64,000 bases of DNA from an uncultured Candidatus Saccharibacteria bacterium (lineage in GTDB: Bacteria > Patescibacteriota > Minisyncoccia > Phycocordibacterales > DAORIS01), in the NCBI GenBank assembly GCA_964644035.1, contig CAZXUH010000001.1, positions 195,712 to 259,711 on the forward strand, in the 5' to 3' direction. How positions within the stretch are numbered: the stretch's first letter is position 1; every line of letters begins with the position of its first letter. The position numbers were made by a program, and so were the translations under genes. The notes under the pieces were generated by a model, which was given only the letters and a program-made list of their open reading frames with translations, did no database searches and had not been told where the DNA came from. Shown here one piece after another: positions 5,365-25,957 of this stretch.

Positions 5365-5437
5365 GGGCCGGTAGCTCATCTGGTAGAGCGCCTCACTTGC
5401 ACTGAGGAGGCGGGGGGTTCGAGTCCTCTCCGGTCCA
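5365..5437 (+). tRNA. tRNA-Ala (anticodon TGC)
   Basis: 73-nt cloverleaf folded by hand: acceptor GGGCCGG/CCGGTCC with G3:U70 and A73, D-arm GCTC/GAGC, anticodon loop CTTGCAC, T-loop TTCGAGT; CCA not encoded. Confidence 0.9.
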
Positions 5438-17348: not shown

Positions 17349-18473
17349 ATGGCATTATCAATCGGCATCGTCGGTCTTCCAAACGTCGGTAAATCGACCC
17401 TTTTCAACGCTCTTACAAAAAAGAGTGTCCTTGCTGCCAACTATCCTTTTGCAACTATTGATCCTTCTGTTGGAGTAGTCGCTGTCCCCGACGATCGGTT
17501 GTGGAAGCTCTCTTCATTTTCAAAATCAGTAAAAACTGTCCCTGCTGCAGTAGAATTTGTCGATATTGCAGGTTTGGTCAAAGGTGCATCAGAAGGCGAA
17601 GGTTTGGGCAATCAATTTTTGCAAAACATCAGAGAAACAGACGCAATTGCTGAGGTGGTGCGTATTTTTGAAGATGACAATATCATTCATGTCGACAATA
17701 AGATCGACCCCCTCAAAGATATTGAGGTGATCAATCTCGAACTCATTCTTGCTGATATGCAGACGATTACCAAGCGTATCAATAACATTCAAAAGGAAGT
17801 AAAGCAGGCTAAAAAAGAGGCTATTATCGAAGAAGCAGGATTAAAGAAAATACAGGTGGCGCTTGAAGCTGGACAACTTGCTCGAACAGCAGCACTCACA
17901 GAATTTGAAATTCCTTTTATAAAGAATATGCATTTGCTGACCATGAAGCCTATTTTGTATGTGCTCAATAAAAAGGGTGGTGGTAAAAATCTAGATGAAA
18001 TAAATGATGAACGATACAAAAAACTGATTGAATTTATAAAACAATCAGGTGCTGGCTATGTAGTAGTCGATGCTCGCATTGAGGAAGAACTCAAAGATTT
18101 CGAAGGGGTAGAAAAAAATGAATTTAGAAAAGAGTTAATGGGAGGGGACTTGTCCGACGAAGCCTTGGCGAAGTCGGATGGGGTAGATCATCTGATCAAA
18201 GCAGGATACGACCTGCTTGGTCTTATAACCTATTTCACAACTGGAGAAGACGAATCACGTGCATGGACTATTAGAAAAGGTTGGACAGCGCCATTGGCTG
18301 GAACAGCGATACATACTGATTTCAAAGATAAATTTGTCAGGGCTGAAGTAGTAGAGTGGGACAAACTTCTCGAAGCTGGTTCATATGGCAATGCTCGGGA
18401 AAAAGGTCTCGTTCGTACTGAAGGCAAGGAGTATATCGTCAAAGACGGCGACGTAATTGAATTTAAAATTTAG
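17349..18473 (+). CDS. ychF: Ribosome-binding ATPase YchF (Obg-like ATPase)
   Basis: MALSIGIVGLPNVGKSTLFNALT.. G1 motif, TGS C-terminal domain. Confidence 0.9.
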   Translation: MALSIGIVGLPNVGKSTLFNALTKKSVLAANYPFATIDPSVGVVAVPDDRLWKLSSFSKSVKTVPAAVEFVDIAGLVKGASEGEGLGNQFLQNIRETDAIAEVVRIFEDDNIIHVDNKIDPLKDIEVINLELILADMQTITKRINNIQKEVKQAKKEAIIEEAGLKKIQVALEAGQLARTAALTEFEIPFIKNMHLLTMKPILYVLNKKGGGKNLDEINDERYKKLIEFIKQSGAGYVVVDARIEEELKDFEGVEKNEFRKELMGGDLSDEALAKSDGVDHLIKAGYDLLGLITYFTTGEDESRAWTIRKGWTAPLAGTAIHTDFKDKFVRAEVVEWDKLLEAGSYGNAREKGLVRTEGKEYIVKDGDVIEFKI

Positions 18474-18633
18474 ATATAAAAAATCCTCCAGAGGTAGACC
18501 TCACGGAGGGGTTGAACGTAGAAGTTCCACGTTGTAGTTGACTGTTGAGGTCACTGTTGGCGTTGAACGTCGCAGTTCGAAGTTGTTGTGGGCACCGAAC
18601 TCATGTCCAGGCTCGAATACTATAACAAGAGCA

Positions 18634-18700
18634 TCAGAATCTGTCAAGTAACGAAGATGGTGGTGCGATAGAGTAGAGAATCTAGGCAGAAAAAAAGCCG
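18634..18700 (+). repeat. A-repeat copy 1 (~65 nt; core GGTGGTGCGATAGAGT followed by A-run and GCC)
   Basis: ~80% identical to copy 2 at 18833-18899; core shared with copy 3 at 20186-20217. Confidence 0.5.
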
Positions 18701-18832
18701 CAATATCCTGTAAACAAGACATCCGGCTGAGGGATTGGCCGCTGAGGCCCGAAGCAGATCTTACCTGAGTGAGCCGCTAAAGGCTGACTAGATACTATAC
18801 CTGTTGCAACTGAAAATATCATAGCAAACTAA

Positions 18833-18899
18833 CCAAAATCTGTCAAATTACAAGATGGTAGTGCTATAGAGTTTGAGATTTAGGTAAGAAAAAAGCCCG
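18833..18899 (+). repeat. A-repeat copy 2 (core GGTAGTGCTATAGAGT)
   Basis: Direct repeat of 18634-18700, about 200 nt upstream of gene 19108. Confidence 0.5.
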
Positions 18900-19107
18900 T
18901 TGGTCTGCGAAACAGCAGTGAACCAACGGGCGTCGCCGAAAAATGAACATTAACCCAAGCACATGGCGAGGGTGATAACAGTGTAGCACGTATATACTTT
19001 ATGTCAAATACTTTGTTGACATGCTATCCTTAGAGTGTTATTTTGCTGCCTAGATACCAGTATTGTACTGGCAGCTAATTCTCAAACACACATGAAAGGA
19101 TTGTTTT

Positions 19108-19668
19108 ATGGATTTGCGAGAATTTTGGAACCTCGTTGAGAAGTACCCTTGGCTGGTGCGTGCGGTTATCATCGGATCAAGTTGGGGGAAAATCGATGAG
19201 GAGTACAGAACTCAGCCCTCTCTGTTTGGTGACTGGTTCAAACCAAGTGCCATCAGAAGCGGCGTAAAACAAATTCGTTTCAGGCAATGGAATAAACTGG
19301 ATTTGCATGCTTTACCATCCACACGTGAACGTCGGGTAGAAAATGCAGGTCGTATTGTAGATACAACCACTTCGGTTGAATATCATTGCTACTCTCATGG
19401 ATTTGACATGGGTCAATTTAGCGACTGTACATATAGCATGGCCGGCGGCGGACAAGCAAAAAGGGATGGTGTTGGGGAGTGGACAGTCCAGAACATGATT
19501 GATTTCGTTCATGAAAATGGAGGGCTTGTTGATGCAATCATCAAAGAAACAACCCAGCATGTGCAACGGTTCAAGACCACCAACGGCATAGAAAAGGCGA
19601 AATCAATGGGGGAACGGACAGTTAAGTCATTCGACATCTTTCTTTCTCCCGACACAAATTCTACTTAA
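19108..19668 (+). CDS. Unknown cytoplasmic protein (186 aa), first gene of a two-gene unit
   Basis: Long ORF, SD GAAAGGA; no recognisable motif. Confidence 0.5.
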   Translation: MDLREFWNLVEKYPWLVRAVIIGSSWGKIDEEYRTQPSLFGDWFKPSAIRSGVKQIRFRQWNKLDLHALPSTRERRVENAGRIVDTTTSVEYHCYSHGFDMGQFSDCTYSMAGGGQAKRDGVGEWTVQNMIDFVHENGGLVDAIIKETTQHVQRFKTTNGIEKAKSMGERTVKSFDIFLSPDTNST

Positions 19669-19679
19669 CAGGAGGTTCT

Positions 19680-20111
19680 ATGGAAACAGTTGGGGATTTA
19701 GAATTCTGGTTCCACAACAGGTTTTGGCTACTTGTTCTTGTTATCACTCTCATCATTCTGACAATAAGAATGACCTTCTACAAACATTCACGGTCACAAA
19801 AAGCTTGGATGTTTGTAGCTATGCTGATCTTGATTCTTGGATCAGTAGCACTTTCGTTCAGTGTAGGTCGCGGTAGAATCGGAAAACCAACAGATATTGA
19901 GTCTATGCGAGACACGGTGAAGTTCGAAGTCTTTGGTGTTGTAGAACACCAAGGGAGATATTTTACTGTTATCAAGCTGGAAGATGGTGAATACCGTTGT
20001 CTCAATTACGGTCGGAAATTTTCTCCCGGCAAATACAGATATGATTGGACTGTGCCACCGTTGGACGATGACTACGATGAAGATTTTGAGATAGGTACAA
20101 CAGGCAAGTAA
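19680..20111 (+). CDS. Unknown membrane protein (two N-terminal TM helices plus ~80-aa C-domain with acidic tail)
   Basis: Perfect SD AGGAGG; starts 12 nt after gene 19108; hydrophobic segments LLVLVITLIILTI and FVAMLILILGSVALSF. Confidence 0.5.
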   Translation: METVGDLEFWFHNRFWLLVLVITLIILTIRMTFYKHSRSQKAWMFVAMLILILGSVALSFSVGRGRIGKPTDIESMRDTVKFEVFGVVEHQGRYFTVIKLEDGEYRCLNYGRKFSPGKYRYDWTVPPLDDDYDEDFEIGTTGK

Positions 20112-20121
20112 ATATTCTCAG

Positions 20122-20155
20122 ACCCCGAACCGAAAGGAACGGGGTTTTATTTTTA
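20122..20155 (+). terminator. Rho-independent terminator R1a (CCCCGAACCGAAAGGAACGGGGTTTTATTTTTA)
   Basis: Hairpin plus T-run; 33-nt sequence repeated identically at 20903-20936. Confidence 0.6.
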
Positions 20156-20156
20156 G

Positions 20157-20188
20157 TTAAAAAAGACCCCTCAACACGAGTTGAAGGG
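20157..20188 (-). terminator. R2a hairpin (AAAAGACCCCTCAACACGAGTTGAAGGG); reads as a terminator with T-run on the minus strand
   Basis: Related copy at 21088-21117. Confidence 0.4.
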
Positions 20189-20217
20189 TGGTGGTACGAT
20201 AGAGTCTAGGATTTAGG
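20186..20217 (+). repeat. A-repeat copy 3 (core GGTGGTACGATAGAGT), immediately upstream of gene 20271
   Basis: 13-14 of 16 core matches to copies 1 and 2. Confidence 0.45.
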
Positions 20218-20270
20218 GATTGACGGATAGGTCTTTAGATGTTACTTTCTTGATTAGAAAGGAACTGCTC

Positions 20271-20894
20271 ATGGAAATAATTAGTAAAAAGTTCTCTTAT
20301 CTTCGATGGTATAGTAGCGCAGAACGAAGTGAATTCAACACAGGAGACCTGCTCATTGATTGGAAAAACCTTTACAAAAAGTTCTTTGGTTTCGATACTG
20401 ACTTCACAGGGCTTAAAATTCCTGAGAAAAAGGATGGTTTCGATCGCCTTATCATTGTCGCCAAGGGAGCTTCCCCGGACTGTGTGTACAAGGCATGTCG
20501 GAAGCTTTTCCGGTGCTTTCGCTACACTGAAGACTTTGACGGCACAACAAGAGGTTGGAATGATCGAGAAGCAAATAATACTTATGCTATCTGGGCTAGG
20601 GATAACCCCGAAGCAGATAAACAGAACAGCAATATCTCTGCTCGTGTTCTCAAAAAACGTGGCGGTACATACATCACTCTAGCCGAGCGTATGTTGTACG
20701 AAATGAAGTACTTCTTAGAAACAGGTGAACACATGGATACAAAAGGAACTTACACTATGTGTCTTGGTTCACGTCGATCGAACGGGGACATCCCATATGT
20801 TTATCGAAATCCAACTATGTATGTAATGTACATCAACTGGTACCATTCGACCGGTCGATGTTCTGATATTCGTGCTCGTGAAGTAGTTTGCTGA
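20271..20894 (+). CDS. Unknown protein (~207 aa; the ORF could also start at 20220)
   Basis: Long ORF with Cys/Tyr/Trp-rich composition; SD AAAGGA before ATG 20271. Confidence 0.45.
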   Translation: MEIISKKFSYLRWYSSAERSEFNTGDLLIDWKNLYKKFFGFDTDFTGLKIPEKKDGFDRLIIVAKGASPDCVYKACRKLFRCFRYTEDFDGTTRGWNDREANNTYAIWARDNPEADKQNSNISARVLKKRGGTYITLAERMLYEMKYFLETGEHMDTKGTYTMCLGSRRSNGDIPYVYRNPTMYVMYINWYHSTGRCSDIRAREVVC

Positions 20895-20902
20895 TCTTAC
20901 CC

Positions 20903-20936
20903 CCCCCGAACCGAAAGGAACGGGGTTTTATTTTTA
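20903..20936 (+). terminator. Rho-independent terminator R1b, identical copy of R1a
   Basis: CCCCGAACCGAAAGGAACGGGGTTTTATTTTTA. Confidence 0.6.
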
Positions 20937-21087
20937 TCAAATTTTGGTATAAAAAAACCGGCAACACTCATTGAGCATTTCCGGATTTAACTGAGGCAAA
21001 TTGCAGGTGGCAAGGGCTAGAGATTACTAGCCGAGCAGGAAGGCACTAATTCCTATCTAATATAACAAAATACTAAGTATTGTCAAT

Positions 21088-21117
21088 AAAAAGACCCCTC
21101 GACAACGAGTCGAGGGG
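21088..21117 (-). terminator. R2b hairpin (CCCCTCGAC AACGA GTCGAGGGG); on the minus strand it is followed by TCTTTTTATT
   Basis: 9-bp perfect stem; T-run only in minus orientation. Confidence 0.45.
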
Positions 21118-21241
21118 CTTCTGGCACGGCCACCAAATGGTGGGACGCGATGCAAAATCGATATGGCGCGCGATACTGTAGAGCTGTTGATTAGCGTAAC
21201 AACTTTGATACAATTTAGCAATAACAACATAATATAAAAAT

Positions 21242-21820
21242 ATGGATCTCAATCAGATGCAAAAGCCGGAACAGTATCGTGGCAATCAATCATGGATACT
21301 CAAATGGTCACTTATCATCGCATTGGTCATCGTTCTCAACCTTTTCTTCAACTACGCACTCTCTCTTGTCTATCCAGCTCCAAAATACGAAGCATATTGT
21401 CCTACGGAGCAGGTAATCAATCCTCCTACCACCAGCGCTAAGTGTGTAGAAGTAGGCGGACAGTGGACTCAAAATACATATCCAAAAGTAGATTCAAACG
21501 GTGAAGTAATCGCTCCTCAAGTGCAAGGTTACTGCAATCCTACATTTACCTGTCAGAAAGACTACGATGCGGTCAGAAAGGTATATGAAAGAAATGTATT
21601 TGTGATTCTTGTCGTACTAGGCGTTGTCTCAATCGCTGTCGGTATGATGCTCAAGGCAGTAGATGTTGTTTCTATTGGATTGTCATTTGGTGGTGTCATC
21701 TCTCTTATTATTGCTTCAATGAGATATTGGTCTGAAGCAGAAAATATTCTCAAGGTTATTATTCTTGGTGTTGCTCTGGTAGTGCTCATCTGGCTTGGAA
21801 TCAAGAGATTCAAGAACTAA
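21242..21820 (+). CDS. Membrane protein with Cys-containing extracytoplasmic region and three TM helices
   Basis: TM segments at N- and C-terminal halves; own terminator. Confidence 0.5.
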   Translation: MDLNQMQKPEQYRGNQSWILKWSLIIALVIVLNLFFNYALSLVYPAPKYEAYCPTEQVINPPTTSAKCVEVGGQWTQNTYPKVDSNGEVIAPQVQGYCNPTFTCQKDYDAVRKVYERNVFVILVVLGVVSIAVGMMLKAVDVVSIGLSFGGVISLIIASMRYWSEAENILKVIILGVALVVLIWLGIKRFKN

Positions 21821-21846
21821 ATAGACTAGTAGGTAATTAAATCAGT

Positions 21847-21882
21847 GAAAAACACTTTCTAGAAATAGAAGGTGTTTTTTAT
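21847..21882 (+). terminator. Rho-independent terminator (GAAAAACAC/GTGTTTTTT)
   Basis: Hairpin plus T-run; a second hairpin CCCTCAGA/TCTGAGGG follows at ~21891-21920. Confidence 0.5.
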
Positions 21883-21959
21883 AAATAAAAACCCTCAGAC
21901 ATTGTAGTATCTGAGGGTTGGAAGCTACCATGCTTTCGCATCCAGATTTTCCGCGCCAA

Positions 21960-22125
21960 AGGGAGTGGCGCTGTTTCGAGCAGATGCTTTCTCGACTAAT
22001 GCCCGCACCAAAACAGGCAAACTCAATAAGCAATGGCTTTTCAAGGGCAACGTAGGTAGAGGAGACTGATTACGGTTCCTTCACACGCTTTCCAGCGGTG
22101 GCTCCGAGCTCGAAACACTAACAAC
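21960..22125. ncRNA. Candidate structured RNA of unknown class (GC-rich element closed by a 10-bp long-range helix)
   Basis: TGTTTCGAGC (21972-21981) is the exact reverse complement of GCTCGAAACA (22108-22117), enclosing ~125 nt that look GC-richer than the AT-rich flanks by eye; no convincing ORF. Confidence 0.25.
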
Positions 22126-22205
22126 GAACCAGTTCAGGATTAATCTATTATTCAATATACATATTGTCAATATCCTAAAAAAATATATGATGTATAACTA
22201 CCTGT

Positions 22206-24839
22206 ATGAAACCCTACGATCATAAAAAAATCGAGAAGAAATGGCCAACCTTCGTTAAAGCTACGGCTGGCAAGCAGAAAGAATACAATCACAAAATCAT
22301 TGAACCTAAGTGGCAAAAAAAATGGGAAAAACAGAAACTCAATAGGGCATCAGACACCTCCAAACAACCGAAGTTCTATGCATTGGATATGTTCCCCTAT
22401 CCTTCAGGAGAAGGACTTCATGTAGGGCATCCTAAAGGCTATATAGCGACAGATATAGTATCTCGTATGAAGAAGATGCAAGGTTTCAATATCTTACATC
22501 CAATGGGTTTTGATGCGTTTGGATTGCCAGCTGAAAATTACGCAATTAAGACTAAAACAAATCCTCAAATAGCCGTTAAAAAGAATATTAAACACTACAA
22601 AGATCAATTAAGTGTTTTGGGATTTAACTATGATTGGTCAAGAGAAATAAATACAACTGATCCTAAATACTACAAATGGACTCAGTGGATATTTTTACAA
22701 TTACTAAAGCAGGGTAATGCTTATGAATCTTATGAAGAAATAGATTGGTGTCCAAAAGATAAAACAGGATTAGCCAAAGAGGATATAGAAAACGGTAAGT
22801 GTGAGCGTTGTGGGACACCAATTGAAAAGAAACTCCTTAAACAGTGGGTGTTGAAAATTACTGATTATGCTGAACGCCTACTTACCGATCTTGATGTAAA
22901 AGATAAGGACGGTAAATATCTTATTGATTGGCCTGAGTCAATAAAAGAGTCTCAAAGAAATTGGATTGGAAAAAGCGAAGGATCTCAAATTGATTTTGCT
23001 TTAAACTTTATTAAAGATCCTTCAGTAAATAAAAATAAAGGTCCTGACGGGAAAGCTGCTCATATTTCAGTATTTACTACACGAGCAGACACACTTTTTG
23101 GTGTTACATATCTTGTATTAGCTCCAGAACATTTGTGGGTAAAATTAGCAACCGATGATACTCATAATGTTCTTGAAAATAAGGAGGAAGTTAAAAAATA
23201 TATTGAAAGCATAAAAAATAAAACTGAAATTGAGAGAACTACGGATAGCAAAGAGAAGACTGGGGTTGAGTTAAAGGGTGTAAAAGCAATAAATCCAGTA
23301 AATGGGGAAGAAATTCCTATGTTTGTTGCTGATTATGTATTAGCCAATTATGGTACGGGTGCAGTTATGGCTGTTCCAGCTCACGATGAAAGAGATTTTC
23401 AATTTGCTAAAAAATATAATCTTGATATTAAACCTGTAATTAGAGCTGAAGATCAAACAATATTACTTAATAATTCTGACCAGCATCTAATTAATACTCT
23501 TAATAAAGAGAATGCGATTTATTCTCCTGCGATGTCCGCAGTTTCTACTGGTTACAAACAACAACCTACTACAGGATATGGAATACTGATGAATTCTTCA
23601 AAATTTGATGGATTGGATTCAGAAAAAGCTAAGAAAGAAATTACTGAATTTGCTGGTGGAAAGATGGTAACAAAATATAAACTTCGCGATTGGGTATTTT
23701 CTCGTCAGAGATACTGGGGAGAACCTATACCAGTAATTCATTGTGAAAAGTGTGGAATCGTACCAGTTCCTGAAAAAGATTTGCCTGTGTTACTTCCTAA
23801 AGTTAAATATTACGAACCAACAGGAACAGGAGAATCTCCACTTGCAGCAATAGAAAAGTGGGTAAATGTTAAGTGTCCAAAATGTAAAGGTAAAGCTAAG
23901 AGGGAAACAAACACCATGCCTCAATGGGCAGGTTCTTCTTGGTATTATTTAAGATATATTGATCCAAAAAACAAGAAAGCACTTGTTGATCCTAAAAAGG
24001 AGAAAGAAATGATGCCAGTAGATTTGTATGTGGGTGGAGCAGAACATGCAACTCGCCATCTTATTTACGCACGATTTTGGCATAAATTTTTATTTGATAT
24101 TGGGGTTGTGTCGGGAGTCGAACCGTTTAAAAAACTTCAGAGTGTCGGATTGATCCTAGCCAAAGATGGTCAGAAAATGAGCAAACGGTGGGGTAATGTA
24201 GTTAATCCCGATGAAGTAGTCTCATTATATGGGGCAGATTCTCTTAGACTTTACGAAATGTTTATGGGACCTTTCGATCAGCCAATTGCTTGGGATACAA
24301 ATAATATAATTGGTGTAAGGAGATTCTTGGAAAAGATTTGGAGACTTTCAGAAAAAATAGAAAATAAACCTGCCGATGAAGTACTCGAAACTTCGCTTCA
24401 AAAGGCAATTAAAAAAGTATCGGCCGATATTGAATCAATGCAATTCAATACTGCAGTTTCGACACTCATGATCTTTTCTAATGATTTAGAAAAAGCAGCT
24501 TTTGTACCCAAAGCTACCTATCAAACTCTCTTGCAGCTTTTGGCGCCGTTTGCACCCCATATTGCCGACGAATTGTGGTCAAAATTGGGTCATAAGAAGT
24601 CTATCCATATCGAGTCTTGGCCTCAATTTGACCCAACAAAGGTCGTGGAGAGTCAAATGAAGATAATCATTCAGATCAATGGCAAGGTCAGGGGAGACGT
24701 AACCGTTGCAGTCAATATCTCTGAGCAGGATATCAAAAATATGGCTCTAGGTATGGATTTTGTGAAGAAATGGGTAGAGGGGCAGGAGATTAAAAAGGTC
24801 ATTTATATCAAGGATAGGCTCATAAACATTGTGGTCTAA
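22206..24839 (+). CDS. leuS: Leucyl-tRNA synthetase
   Basis: HIGH motif (HVGHPKGY), KMSKR-type motif (KMSKRWGNV), CP1 editing and Zn-binding CxxC pairs. Confidence 0.93.
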   Translation: MKPYDHKKIEKKWPTFVKATAGKQKEYNHKIIEPKWQKKWEKQKLNRASDTSKQPKFYALDMFPYPSGEGLHVGHPKGYIATDIVSRMKKMQGFNILHPMGFDAFGLPAENYAIKTKTNPQIAVKKNIKHYKDQLSVLGFNYDWSREINTTDPKYYKWTQWIFLQLLKQGNAYESYEEIDWCPKDKTGLAKEDIENGKCERCGTPIEKKLLKQWVLKITDYAERLLTDLDVKDKDGKYLIDWPESIKESQRNWIGKSEGSQIDFALNFIKDPSVNKNKGPDGKAAHISVFTTRADTLFGVTYLVLAPEHLWVKLATDDTHNVLENKEEVKKYIESIKNKTEIERTTDSKEKTGVELKGVKAINPVNGEEIPMFVADYVLANYGTGAVMAVPAHDERDFQFAKKYNLDIKPVIRAEDQTILLNNSDQHLINTLNKENAIYSPAMSAVSTGYKQQPTTGYGILMNSSKFDGLDSEKAKKEITEFAGGKMVTKYKLRDWVFSRQRYWGEPIPVIHCEKCGIVPVPEKDLPVLLPKVKYYEPTGTGESPLAAIEKWVNVKCPKCKGKAKRETNTMPQWAGSSWYYLRYIDPKNKKALVDPKKEKEMMPVDLYVGGAEHATRHLIYARFWHKFLFDIGVVSGVEPFKKLQSVGLILAKDGQKMSKRWGNVVNPDEVVSLYGADSLRLYEMFMGPFDQPIAWDTNNIIGVRRFLEKIWRLSEKIENKPADEVLETSLQKAIKKVSADIESMQFNTAVSTLMIFSNDLEKAAFVPKATYQTLLQLLAPFAPHIADELWSKLGHKKSIHIESWPQFDPTKVVESQMKIIIQINGKVRGDVTVAVNISEQDIKNMALGMDFVKKWVEGQEIKKVIYIKDRLINIVV

Positions 24840-24919: not shown

Positions 24920-25957
24920 ATGAGCACCAGCGCTATATCATTTAAGCCAAAACAGGTCACGAAGAAGCTTCTTTCAGTACTCCCAGTTCGCGCTCGCGAC
25001 GTTATTGTTTCGCGATATGGTCTCGGAAAAGAGACTGAAAAAATGACTCTTGATGCCATCGGCAAGCGCTACGGTATCACTCGTGAACGCGTTCGCCAGA
25101 TTGAAAACTATGCTATTACCAATATCAGAAAGGCCAAGGAATTTGCAGAAGTAGAACCTATTTTTAGAGAACTTGAAGCTGCTATTAAAAAGCTCGGCGG
25201 AATTATTACAGAAGAAGATCTTCTTGGTCATGTCAGCAAGGATAAGGCGACTCAGAACCATATCAACCTCCTTTTGGTACTCGGTCATTCTTTCAAGCGT
25301 ATGCGCGAAGACGATCATTTCAAGCATCGTTGGCACATCGATGACAGTCTTTCAGAAAAGATTCATCAGTCACTCCACAAGCTCTACGAAGGTCTCTCGG
25401 ATGACGATCTTATTGCAGAACCAGATATTCTCAAGCGTTTCCTCGAACACGTAAAAGAAGTTTCAGAAGAATATCGACAGGAAGAAATCCTTCACCGATG
25501 GCTCCGAATCTCAAAGAAGATCGGTAAAAACCCTCTTGGCGAATGGGGAGTAGCACATTCTCCAAACGTTCACGCAAAAGGCATGCGAGATTATGCATTC
25601 CTTGTGATCCGCAAACATGGTTCACCAATACATTTCACCGAAGTAGCCAAGAAGATCACTCAGATTTTTGGAAAGAAAGCACACGTTGCAACTACACACA
25701 ATGAACTTATCAAGGATCCTCGTTTTGTCCTCGTTGGTCGTGGTCTCTATGCGCTCAAGGAATGGGGTTATCTCTCGGGTGTCGTCAAAGATGTCATTAA
25801 GAAAGTGCTCAATGAACACGGACCTCTTACAAAAGATCAGATTATTGAAAAAGTTCTCAAAGAGAGATATGTAAAAGAAAATACCATCCTCGTAAACCTC
25901 CAGAATCAGAAGTTTTTCAAGAAAGATAAGGAAGGTAAGTACTCATCGGTAGCATAA
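24920..25957 (+). CDS. DNA-binding protein with N-terminal sigma-70 region-4-like HTH and C-terminal HARE-HTH-like domain
   Basis: N-terminus LDAIGKRYGITRERVRQIENYAITNIRK resembles sigma r4; C-terminus ..IHFTEVAKKITQIF..THNELIKDPRFVLVGRGLYALKEWGY resembles HARE-HTH (as in RpoE-delta N-domain). Confidence 0.6.
   Translation: MSTSAISFKPKQVTKKLLSVLPVRARDVIVSRYGLGKETEKMTLDAIGKRYGITRERVRQIENYAITNIRKAKEFAEVEPIFRELEAAIKKLGGIITEEDLLGHVSKDKATQNHINLLLVLGHSFKRMREDDHFKHRWHIDDSLSEKIHQSLHKLYEGLSDDDLIAEPDILKRFLEHVKEVSEEYRQEEILHRWLRISKKIGKNPLGEWGVAHSPNVHAKGMRDYAFLVIRKHGSPIHFTEVAKKITQIFGKKAHVATTHNELIKDPRFVLVGRGLYALKEWGYLSGVVKDVIKKVLNEHGPLTKDQIIEKVLKERYVKENTILVNLQNQKFFKKDKEGKYSSVA

Follow-up and report, generated by a model that had tools for sequence, protein, structure and literature searches.

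For integrative and conjugative elements (ICEs) and integrative and mobilizable elements (IMEs), it is established that elements accrete in tandem at an attachment (att) site comprising a target gene's end, and that they decay to cis-mobilizable elements (CIMEs) lacking an integrase (PMC5704250). The elements related to ICESt1 in Streptococcus thermophilus are an example of integration at a gene 3′ end, tandem accretion and CIME decay (reviewed in PMC5704250). Here, we analysed a stretch of 64,000 nucleotides (hereafter the window) from an uncultured Candidatus Saccharibacteria bacterium (contig CAZXUH010000001.1, positions 195,712 to 259,711), in which three copies of a 34-nt repeat follow ychF, the gene for the redox-regulated ATPase/GTPase YchF. 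These copies are likely to be relics of att sites, left when tyrosine integrases inserted elements into the 3′ end of ychF and stacked there by tandem accretion.

Repeat copies as pseudo 3′ ends of ychF

The conserved 34-nt unit (consensus GAAGATGGTGGTGCGATAGAGTTTAAGATTTAGG) was mapped on the plus strand to positions 18653-18686 (copy 1, GAAGATGGTGGTGCGATAGAGTAGAGAATCTAGG), 18851-18884 (copy 2, CAAGATGGTAGTGCTATAGAGTTTGAGATTTAGG) and 20184-20217 (copy 3, AAGGGTGGTGGTACGATAGAGTCTAGGATTTAGG). Copy 2 is the best kept of the three (nhmmer E value 8.7e-11; 1.4e-07 for copy 3), and identity to the family consensus is 85% for copy 1 and 88% for copy 2, the three copies spanning 82-88%. The 16-nt core GGTRGTRCKATAGAGT has exactly three matches in the window, at 18659, 18857 and 20190, all on the plus strand; shuffled sequences predict 0.06, and with up to two mismatches allowed there is no fourth. 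Searching the whole window with a profile of related copies returned the same three sites and none on the minus strand. The three copies of an A-repeat reported in a preliminary description of this DNA are therefore real. The similarity of the two long copies (18634-18700 and 18833-18899) also holds, at 75% identity (50/67 columns, with one or two gaps) instead of the 80% or so given there, and the cores of the copies agree with one another at 13-15 of 16 positions on recomputation, where 13-14 had been stated. That description had overlooked the 34-nt length of the unit, the fact that copy 3 alone precedes a plus-strand gene, and a fourth member of the family.

All three copies lie within 1.6 kb downstream of ychF (17349-18473, plus strand; Pfam YchF-GTPase_C, 1.2e-32, and MMR_HSR1, 2.4e-22). 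Copy 1 is spaced by 212 nt from the true end of the gene, and the copies are spaced by 198 and 1333 nt. The fourth, weaker family member, which a repeat finder placed at 18442-18487 with 61% identity to copy 1, is the 3′ end of ychF itself. This true end (AAAGACGGCGACGTAATTGAATTTAAAATTTAGA, 18441-18474, plus strand) includes the stop codon at 18471-18473 and would be the attB/attL-type member of the family. In the ychF frame the 34-mer reads E/K-D-G-G-A-I-E-F-K-I-stop (consensus E-D-G-G-A-I-E-F-K-I-stop), to be compared with K-D-G-D-V-I-E-F-K-I-stop at the YchF C-terminus. Because the true ychF end belongs to the repeat family and the reading frame matches the YchF C-terminus, the copies are, on sequence grounds, pseudo 3′ ends of ychF, and we assign them to the attR type.

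The pseudo-ends form a class of their own. Over the left 21 nt, the similarity of a pseudo-end to the pseudo-ends of other genomes is 0.83, versus 0.66 to the true ychF end of its own genome; over the right 13 nt the two values are 0.81 and 0.82. Two columns are diagnostic: column 11 is G in 23/24 pseudo-ends and A in 11/11 true ends, and column 18 is A in 22/24 pseudo-ends and T or G in all 11 true ends. The true ychF end of the window has the A and the T expected of its class at these columns. Independent local duplications cannot account for this pattern, whereas a hybrid site can, its left arm being foreign, its core common to both partners and its right side that of the host; the pattern is what an attR (P arm, core and B′) predicts.

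No dyad symmetry was found in the chromosomal copies. Treated as single-stranded DNA, the consensus 34-mer has a minimum free energy (MFE) of 0 kcal/mol, and neither copy 2 nor copy 3 folds when its flanks are included; the left edge of copy 3 overlaps a hairpin at 20166-20189.

Integrase genes beside the motif in phage-like contigs

Loci other than the window are designated here by L numbers. In L016, a tyrosine recombinase gene (PF00589, 1.9e-25) lies 350 nt upstream of a motif copy. The protein is Xer-like, scores under every NCBIfam equivalog cut-off and has homologues that are widespread in Patescibacteria. In L022, an integrase 92% identical to that of L016 is followed by a small open reading frame (ORF), a non-coding RNA (ncRNA) that we call Z, the motif GAAGATGGTGGTGCGATAGAGTTTAAGATATAA, an exonuclease, a replication initiator and a DnaC-like loader. 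The order in L023 is an endolysin-like gene, the integrase, an imitation of the ychF end and a RusA-like gene, and such an imitation also follows the integrase in L024 and in the IMG/VR contig L025. With the replication and lysis modules beside the site assigned by PHROG hits, the gene order in these contigs is the classical lysis-int-attP-early-genes layout of a temperate phage.

The architecture of the sites differs between contigs, attP and its inverted arms being known from these related loci and not from the window's own genome. In L022, the inverted arms GATGGTGGTGCGATA and TATAACACCACCGTC flank a 10-nt centre. The arms of L025 differ from those of L022 yet match each other, around a 12-nt centre, and the attR-type site of L016 is without a second arm. 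Similarity between the array copies and L022 stops entirely at L022 position 1227, the end of TTTAAGAT; that between L022 and either L016 or L011 runs on leftwards through Z and the small ORF, in L016 up to the 3′ end of the integrase gene. These boundaries, together with the arms, place the presumed crossing-over in GAGTTTAAGAT. By their sequence, L022 and L025 look like attP, L016 and L011 like attR, and the array copies like attR-type sites.

A scan of the viral collection with the strict 31-nt form of the motif gave no matches; the phage sites, which differ from the motif in their last bases, were reached through the integrase instead. Relatives of YchF on viral contigs were set aside as uninformative: they are distant genes from outside the Patescibacteria, with no integrase at the gene end. 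Relatives of the integrase are encoded on 18 IMG/VR contigs. Several of these carry, at the position equivalent to the ychF-end imitation, a non-coding imitation of the end of a SEC-C-motif gene (..CGSGKKYKKCHG-stop), preceded by stop codons, which presumably represents the SecA C-terminus; it was mapped to about position 4201 of L031, 4207 of L033, 4338 of L034, 4315 of L040, 4331 of L041 and 4438 of L029. This substitution suggests that members of the integrase clade change target from one conserved host gene to another, in each case at the 3′ end.

The ncRNA Z, of about 130 nt, is conserved between the integrase gene and attP (L016, 8230-8387; L022, 1040-1194; L011, 60-197) and was also detected downstream of the integrase in L028, L029 and L037. 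It has a TTGGTATAAT-type promoter and a hairpin GCTCGCC..GACGAGC, and may regulate integration.

Arrays in other Patescibacteria

A 42-bit pattern of the motif retrieved four GTDB species genomes, all metagenome-assembled genomes (MAGs) of Patescibacteria, and a slightly looser pattern retrieved 10 metagenome contigs; assignment to Patescibacteria rests on the MAG title or on a YchF identity of 64-84%. Further arrays were found in contigs fetched through ychF relatives (L020/L021 and L057). Outside the window, direct arrays of the 34-mer are thus present in at least a dozen contigs of Patescibacteria. With identical contigs counted once, eight arrays start at the true ychF stop codon: L004, L006, L007, L008 (identical to L014), L012, L013, L020 (identical to L021) and L057. 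They hold one to four copies spaced by 140-600 nt, all in direct orientation; the true ychF end belongs to a direct-repeat family in the window and in these eight other distinct arrays. In L010, a single pseudo-end lies about 570 nt downstream of the ychF stop. The intervals between copies are compact transcription units that run in either orientation and have a promoter and a terminator each. Small membrane peptides are the predicted products of some, others being non-coding.

The distribution is patchy. Three of the four closest ychF relatives fetched have no pseudo-ends (L017, L018 and L019, 81-85% identity), and the fourth, L020 (80%), has one. Compared with L013, L020 has one additional cassette and pseudo-end between ychF and a homologous RNA gene that abuts ychF in L013. 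The right part of the 34-mer is the host's own version in two pseudo-ends of L057 (GGTCTAG / AGTCTAG) and the phage-type ATATAA in one.

Some of the arrays contain further RNA features. Three genomes share a conserved structured ncRNA of about 190 nt, encoded opposite the ychF strand and bracketed by motif copies, with different neighbours in each: L012 (7675-7860, plus), L004 (1545-1740, plus) and L011 (405-597, minus). RNAalifold predicts 55 pairs for it, eight of them with compensatory changes, and no Rfam family matched it. In L008 (234-330) and L011 (900-1000), read with the motif on the plus strand, a ychF-end-type copy is immediately followed by an inverted copy of its own last 20 nt or so, giving a long perfect hairpin (for example, GAGTTTAAAATCTGATGGGCAGAGCCCATCAGATTTTAAACTC). 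In L008 the copy concerned is the true ychF end; in L011, which has no ychF within reach, it is the final copy of the array. The hairpin could be a terminator or a different site architecture. A reverse cassette of L008 (about 716-900, oriented) contains a tRNA-like segment with a T-arm-like GGTTCAAATCCCGTCGTCGG, for which neither ARAGORN nor Rfam made a tRNA call.

Proposed origin of the repeats

We propose the following sequence of events. In Patescibacteria, one clade of temperate phages or integrative elements would encode a Xer-like tyrosine integrase, with an attP adjoining the integrase gene whose core imitates the last 34 nt or so of the host ychF. Recombination in the common central segment GAGTTTAAGAT would leave ychF intact, and the far side of the insert would keep an attR made up of the left arm of the element (GAAGATGGTGGTGCGATA), the shared core and the host sequence that formerly followed ychF. 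The three attR-type copies of the window (starting at 18653, 18851 and 20184) would then record at least three stacked insertion events. The segments between them, with three putative minus-strand small RNAs and two ORFan genes, would be non-autonomous cassettes that each retain a working half-site and are mobilised in trans, or trimmed remnants, because no integrase is present in the repeat-bounded segments, a state for which the accretion and CIME concept has room; trimming would reflect deletion, in these streamlined genomes, of all but the functional pieces. The homology to the ychF end, the distinct class of pseudo-ends, the attP position and architecture in phage-like contigs and the patchy distribution are observed, whereas the recombination itself, the succession of events and the source of the small units are inferred. 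An 11-nt core carries one to four mismatches in the three window copies and two in the true ychF end, as read from the sequences, and because of these mismatches the window copies, decayed as they are, are probably inactive scars.

Several observations weigh against this origin. No PF00589 domain was found in the ORFs between or beside the copies, so that the segments they bound contain no recognised integrase or recombinase, and the L016 integrase had no match in the whole window by tblastn. In none of the recovered contigs does a complete prophage separate ychF from a pseudo-end. What lies to the left of the array pseudo-ends varies between copies; the phage P arm with its integrase and ncRNA Z is not there, and homology sets in abruptly where the 34-mer starts, which the simple decay of a single phage family does not explain. 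The intervals are complete micro-units and not recognisable phage debris. The true ychF end of the window matches its copies weakly, at 56-62% identity (59% for copy 1). The copies of L009 (identical to L005 and L015) lie 630 nt upstream of ychF, and those of L003 follow mnmA. Occupancy did not vary at the strain level: the six contigs listed with identical YchF (cluster P0062), four of which span ychF to leuS, are arranged alike. The att-site origin thus explains the micro-cassette arrays only in part.

Transcription units and genes around the window copies

Near-consensus minus-strand promoters lie within 5 nt of copies 1 and 2, and the small units that they would transcribe, of about 85-135 nt, have intrinsic terminators at their ends. 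Putative small transcript A was mapped to 18478-18612 (minus strand), with the terminator CCTCCGTGAGGTCTACCTCTGGAGG followed by six Ts and an internal 51-nt repeat; its promoter at 18619-18647 (TTGACA-17-TATAGT, extended TG) agrees with the consensus at 11/12 positions. Within unit A, a 31-nt direct repeat (18508-18538 and 18559-18589, 81% identity, 51 nt apart) is accounted for by no ORF. Putative unit B (18690-18811, minus strand; MFE -39.8 kcal/mol, z -2.4) has a promoter at 18818-18846 (TTGACA-17-TATGAT, extended TG; 11/12 positions). For putative unit C (18890-18974, minus strand; z -4.0), the strong terminator is GCCCGTTGGT..ACCAACGGGC followed by six Ts and the promoter TTGACA-16-TACACT is at 18980-19007 on the same strand. 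Copies 1 and 2 thus sit between a minus-strand terminator and a minus-strand promoter. The A-run followed by GCC that the preliminary description had seen at the end of each long copy was found again and is the U-tract and stem of the minus-strand intrinsic terminators, that of unit B in the case of copy 1. Of the three copies, only copy 3 precedes a plus-strand gene, that at 20271; the promoters adjoining copies 1 and 2 are on the minus strand.

The minus-strand units contain no convincing ORF. At gathering scores, Rfam reported nothing but a tRNA-Ala at 5365 in the whole window, and a permissive Rfam search of 18300-22300 and 11 related loci gave no credible family for the small units. ARAGORN found neither tRNA nor tmRNA in the arrays.

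Between copies 2 and 3, the plus-strand cargo (19016-20155) consists of a promoter at 19016-19044, two ORFan genes of 186 (19108-19668) and 143 amino acids (19680-20111), and a terminator at 20123-20155. A third plus-strand ORFan gene, of 207 amino acids (20271-20894), follows copy 3. It is preceded by a plus-strand promoter-like sequence at 20220-20248 (TTGACG-17-TACTTT), beginning 2 nt past copy 3, which is below the threshold of the promoter scan and was read from the sequence. The four ORFs of the island have no Pfam, NCBIfam or PHROG match; for the 186-amino acid protein, a word-indexed search of a collection of 5.8 billion proteins returned the self-match alone, and a look-up of the 207-amino acid protein returned nothing on record. 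A stop codon, 2-4 nt and a -35 hexamer is the layout that follows the true ychF ends in L004, L010, L012 and L018. Because copy 3 repeats this layout, with the hexamer two bases after TAGG, the 207-amino acid gene probably stood next to ychF, on its downstream side, in the original arrangement.

The plus-strand terminators of the 143- and 207-amino acid genes (20123-20155 and 20904-20936) are exact copies of a 33-nt repeat, CCCCGAACCGAAAGGAACGGGGTTTTATTTTTA, and similar hairpins were seen nearby (20160-20189 and 21088-21118). Two public contigs, L001 and L002, stop about 40 nt past the 143-amino acid gene, inside the first of these terminators. Two more putative minus-strand transcripts were mapped between the island and leuS, each with a near-consensus promoter, an intrinsic terminator and no Rfam match: unit D, of about 105 nt (20948-21052; promoter 21086..21059), and unit E, of about 245 nt (21890-22135; promoter 22170..22142). 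The gene after leuS (24920-25957) encodes Sigma70 region 4 and HARE-HTH domains. In L019, L057 and L059, too, leuS is followed by this gene, and in L012 by an ORF of similar size.

Alternative explanations

The same arrays could instead be an active, integron-like platform, in which each small-RNA or micro-protein unit, with its own promoter, its terminator and one 34-bp site, is independently mobile, and a Xer-like integrase encoded by phages and working in trans would add, remove and rearrange units at the ychF 3′ end. We consider this rather unlikely, even though it would account for the sharp boundaries that flank the 34-mer on either side in over 20 copies whatever the orientation of the cargo, for a left arm that is conserved despite wholly different DNA to its left (suggesting that each unit must keep a working site), for the 190-nt or so structured RNA bracketed by sites among different neighbours in three genomes, and for the difference of one cassette and one site between L020 and L013. 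Independent mobility sits poorly with the fact that neither a circular form nor strain-level presence or absence was seen among contigs sharing the identical P0062 YchF, and with array sites that are of the attR type, without the second inverted arm of attP. The copies in the window are decayed in their core, most arrays have no adjoining integrase, and only the 190-nt RNA, the 'Y' RNA and a module of reverse promoter plus site are common to different genomes.

The preliminary description had favoured an operator or promoter module, shared between units of the island, through which a single regulator would control them together. Many copies do have a -35 hexamer close to one edge, at a distance of 2-6 nt. 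In the window, the neighbours are minus-strand promoters for copies 1 and 2 and a plus-strand promoter-like site for copy 3; the motif also holds a direct half-repeat, AAGATGGTGG and AAGATTTAGG, which lie 22 nt apart as read from the sequence. The promoter is, however, on opposite sides in different copies, against opposite ends of an asymmetric motif that has no dyad symmetry. Four copies in other genomes (L004-5919, an oriented position, L012-1472, L009-994 and L008-1253) lie between forward and reverse terminators, with no promoter on either side, and the motif is therefore a separator of units and not part of a promoter. All three copies in the 64 kb are confined to the 1.6 kb downstream of ychF, and the same sequence is the integrase-adjacent site, in attP position, of phage-like contigs. 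On these grounds, and given the homology to the ychF end, we abandon the operator as very unlikely. Site-specific recombination scars, which the same description had named as its alternative, gain support from the attP-type site in phage-like contigs and from the hybrid pseudo-ends.

Local tandem duplication of the ychF end and a convergent small-RNA gene, by unequal crossing-over or slippage and without a recombinase, followed by decay, is hardly plausible: the regular spacing from the true end to copies 1 and 2 (212 and 198 nt), the promoter adjoining both and their similarity over about 85 nt would suit it, but the derived bases (G at column 11, A at column 18) are common to genomes whose YchF is 64-84% identical to that of the window, pseudo-ends are closer to one another than to their own gene end, the RNA bodies between copies are mutually unrelated, and the derived sequence also stands beside the integrase in phage-like contigs.

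Other candidates were rejected. An integron attC site would have a hairpin and GTTRRRY boxes; the 34-mer has no hairpin (MFE 0) and, by inspection, no such box. For TIGR02249 and NF011946, whose cut-offs are 265 and 435 bits, the L016 integrase reaches 52.5 and 30 bits, far from an IntI-type integrase. A Xer/dif terminus site is discounted by the absence of dyad symmetry, by a cumulative GC skew that rises monotonically through 18-21 kb, and by genes that are all on the plus strand from 16 kb to 64 kb, with no orientation switch. As the preliminary description had also concluded, three diverged copies at irregular spacings (198 and 1333 nt), with complete transcription units as spacers, do not make an array of clustered regularly interspaced short palindromic repeats (CRISPR). 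Only three copies, all clustered, speak against a DNA uptake sequence, and a diversity-generating retroelement was dismissed as there is no reverse transcriptase and the differences are not adenine-specific.

Significance of the ychF locus

If the att-site origin is right, what looks like a regulatory repeat is a trace left by mobile DNA, and a wrong regulatory annotation of the locus is averted. In Patescibacteria, a group in which, to our knowledge, little is known of lysogeny and gene flow, the ychF 3′ end would then serve temperate phages or integrative elements as an integration hot spot. What the integrase clade imitates appears to be the end of a conserved host gene: that of ychF here, and a SEC-C-type end in its relatives. 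A profile of the 34-mer could serve as a marker for prophages and variable islands in the fragmented genomes of the candidate phyla radiation, and the trio of integrase, attP and attB is a candidate genetic tool for organisms now without one. The arrays are rich in unannotated small RNAs, the conserved structured RNA of about 190 nt among them. Should the cassette platform prove true, it would be a previously undescribed integron-like system without attC, and streamlined genomes would gain a hot spot for exchanging small regulatory or accessory genes.

Comparison with known systems

Integrons and clusters of attC sites lacking integron-integrases (CALINs) resemble the ychF arrays in having compact cassettes separated by a recurring site, often without a nearby integrase, with the first site anchored at a fixed platform. 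The ychF-array site differs from theirs in being a 34-bp core of the double-strand type, with no hairpin potential and no R''/R' boxes; the associated integrase is far under the integron-integrase cut-offs, and the cassettes have their own promoters and stand in either orientation.

Integrative mobile elements exploiting Xer (IMEX) and the pdif modules at dif share with our locus a Xer-like recombinase and small modules bounded by tandem sites at one place. In contrast to these, the ychF-array site lacks the 11-6-11 palindrome of the dif type and is not at a switch of GC skew or gene orientation, and the recombinase is encoded by phage-like contigs and is not an evident housekeeping Xer.

A pneumococcal prophage next to ychF was considered as a precedent and set aside, since it integrates upstream of the gene at an unrelated 14-bp site; literature searches returned no precedent for the ychF 3′ end as a target or for Patescibacteria as the host group. 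The closest likeness is with prophages, ICEs and IMEs that integrate into the 3′ end of a protein or tRNA gene, where the tyrosine integrase is likewise next to attP, and with the accretion of ICEs and IMEs, where tandem att copies likewise bound segments without an integrase. The segments of the ychF arrays differ in being extremely small (about 165-1300 bp), and many of them are complete promoter-RNA-terminator units instead of recognisable element debris. The mechanism is of a known kind; the target and the host group are new.

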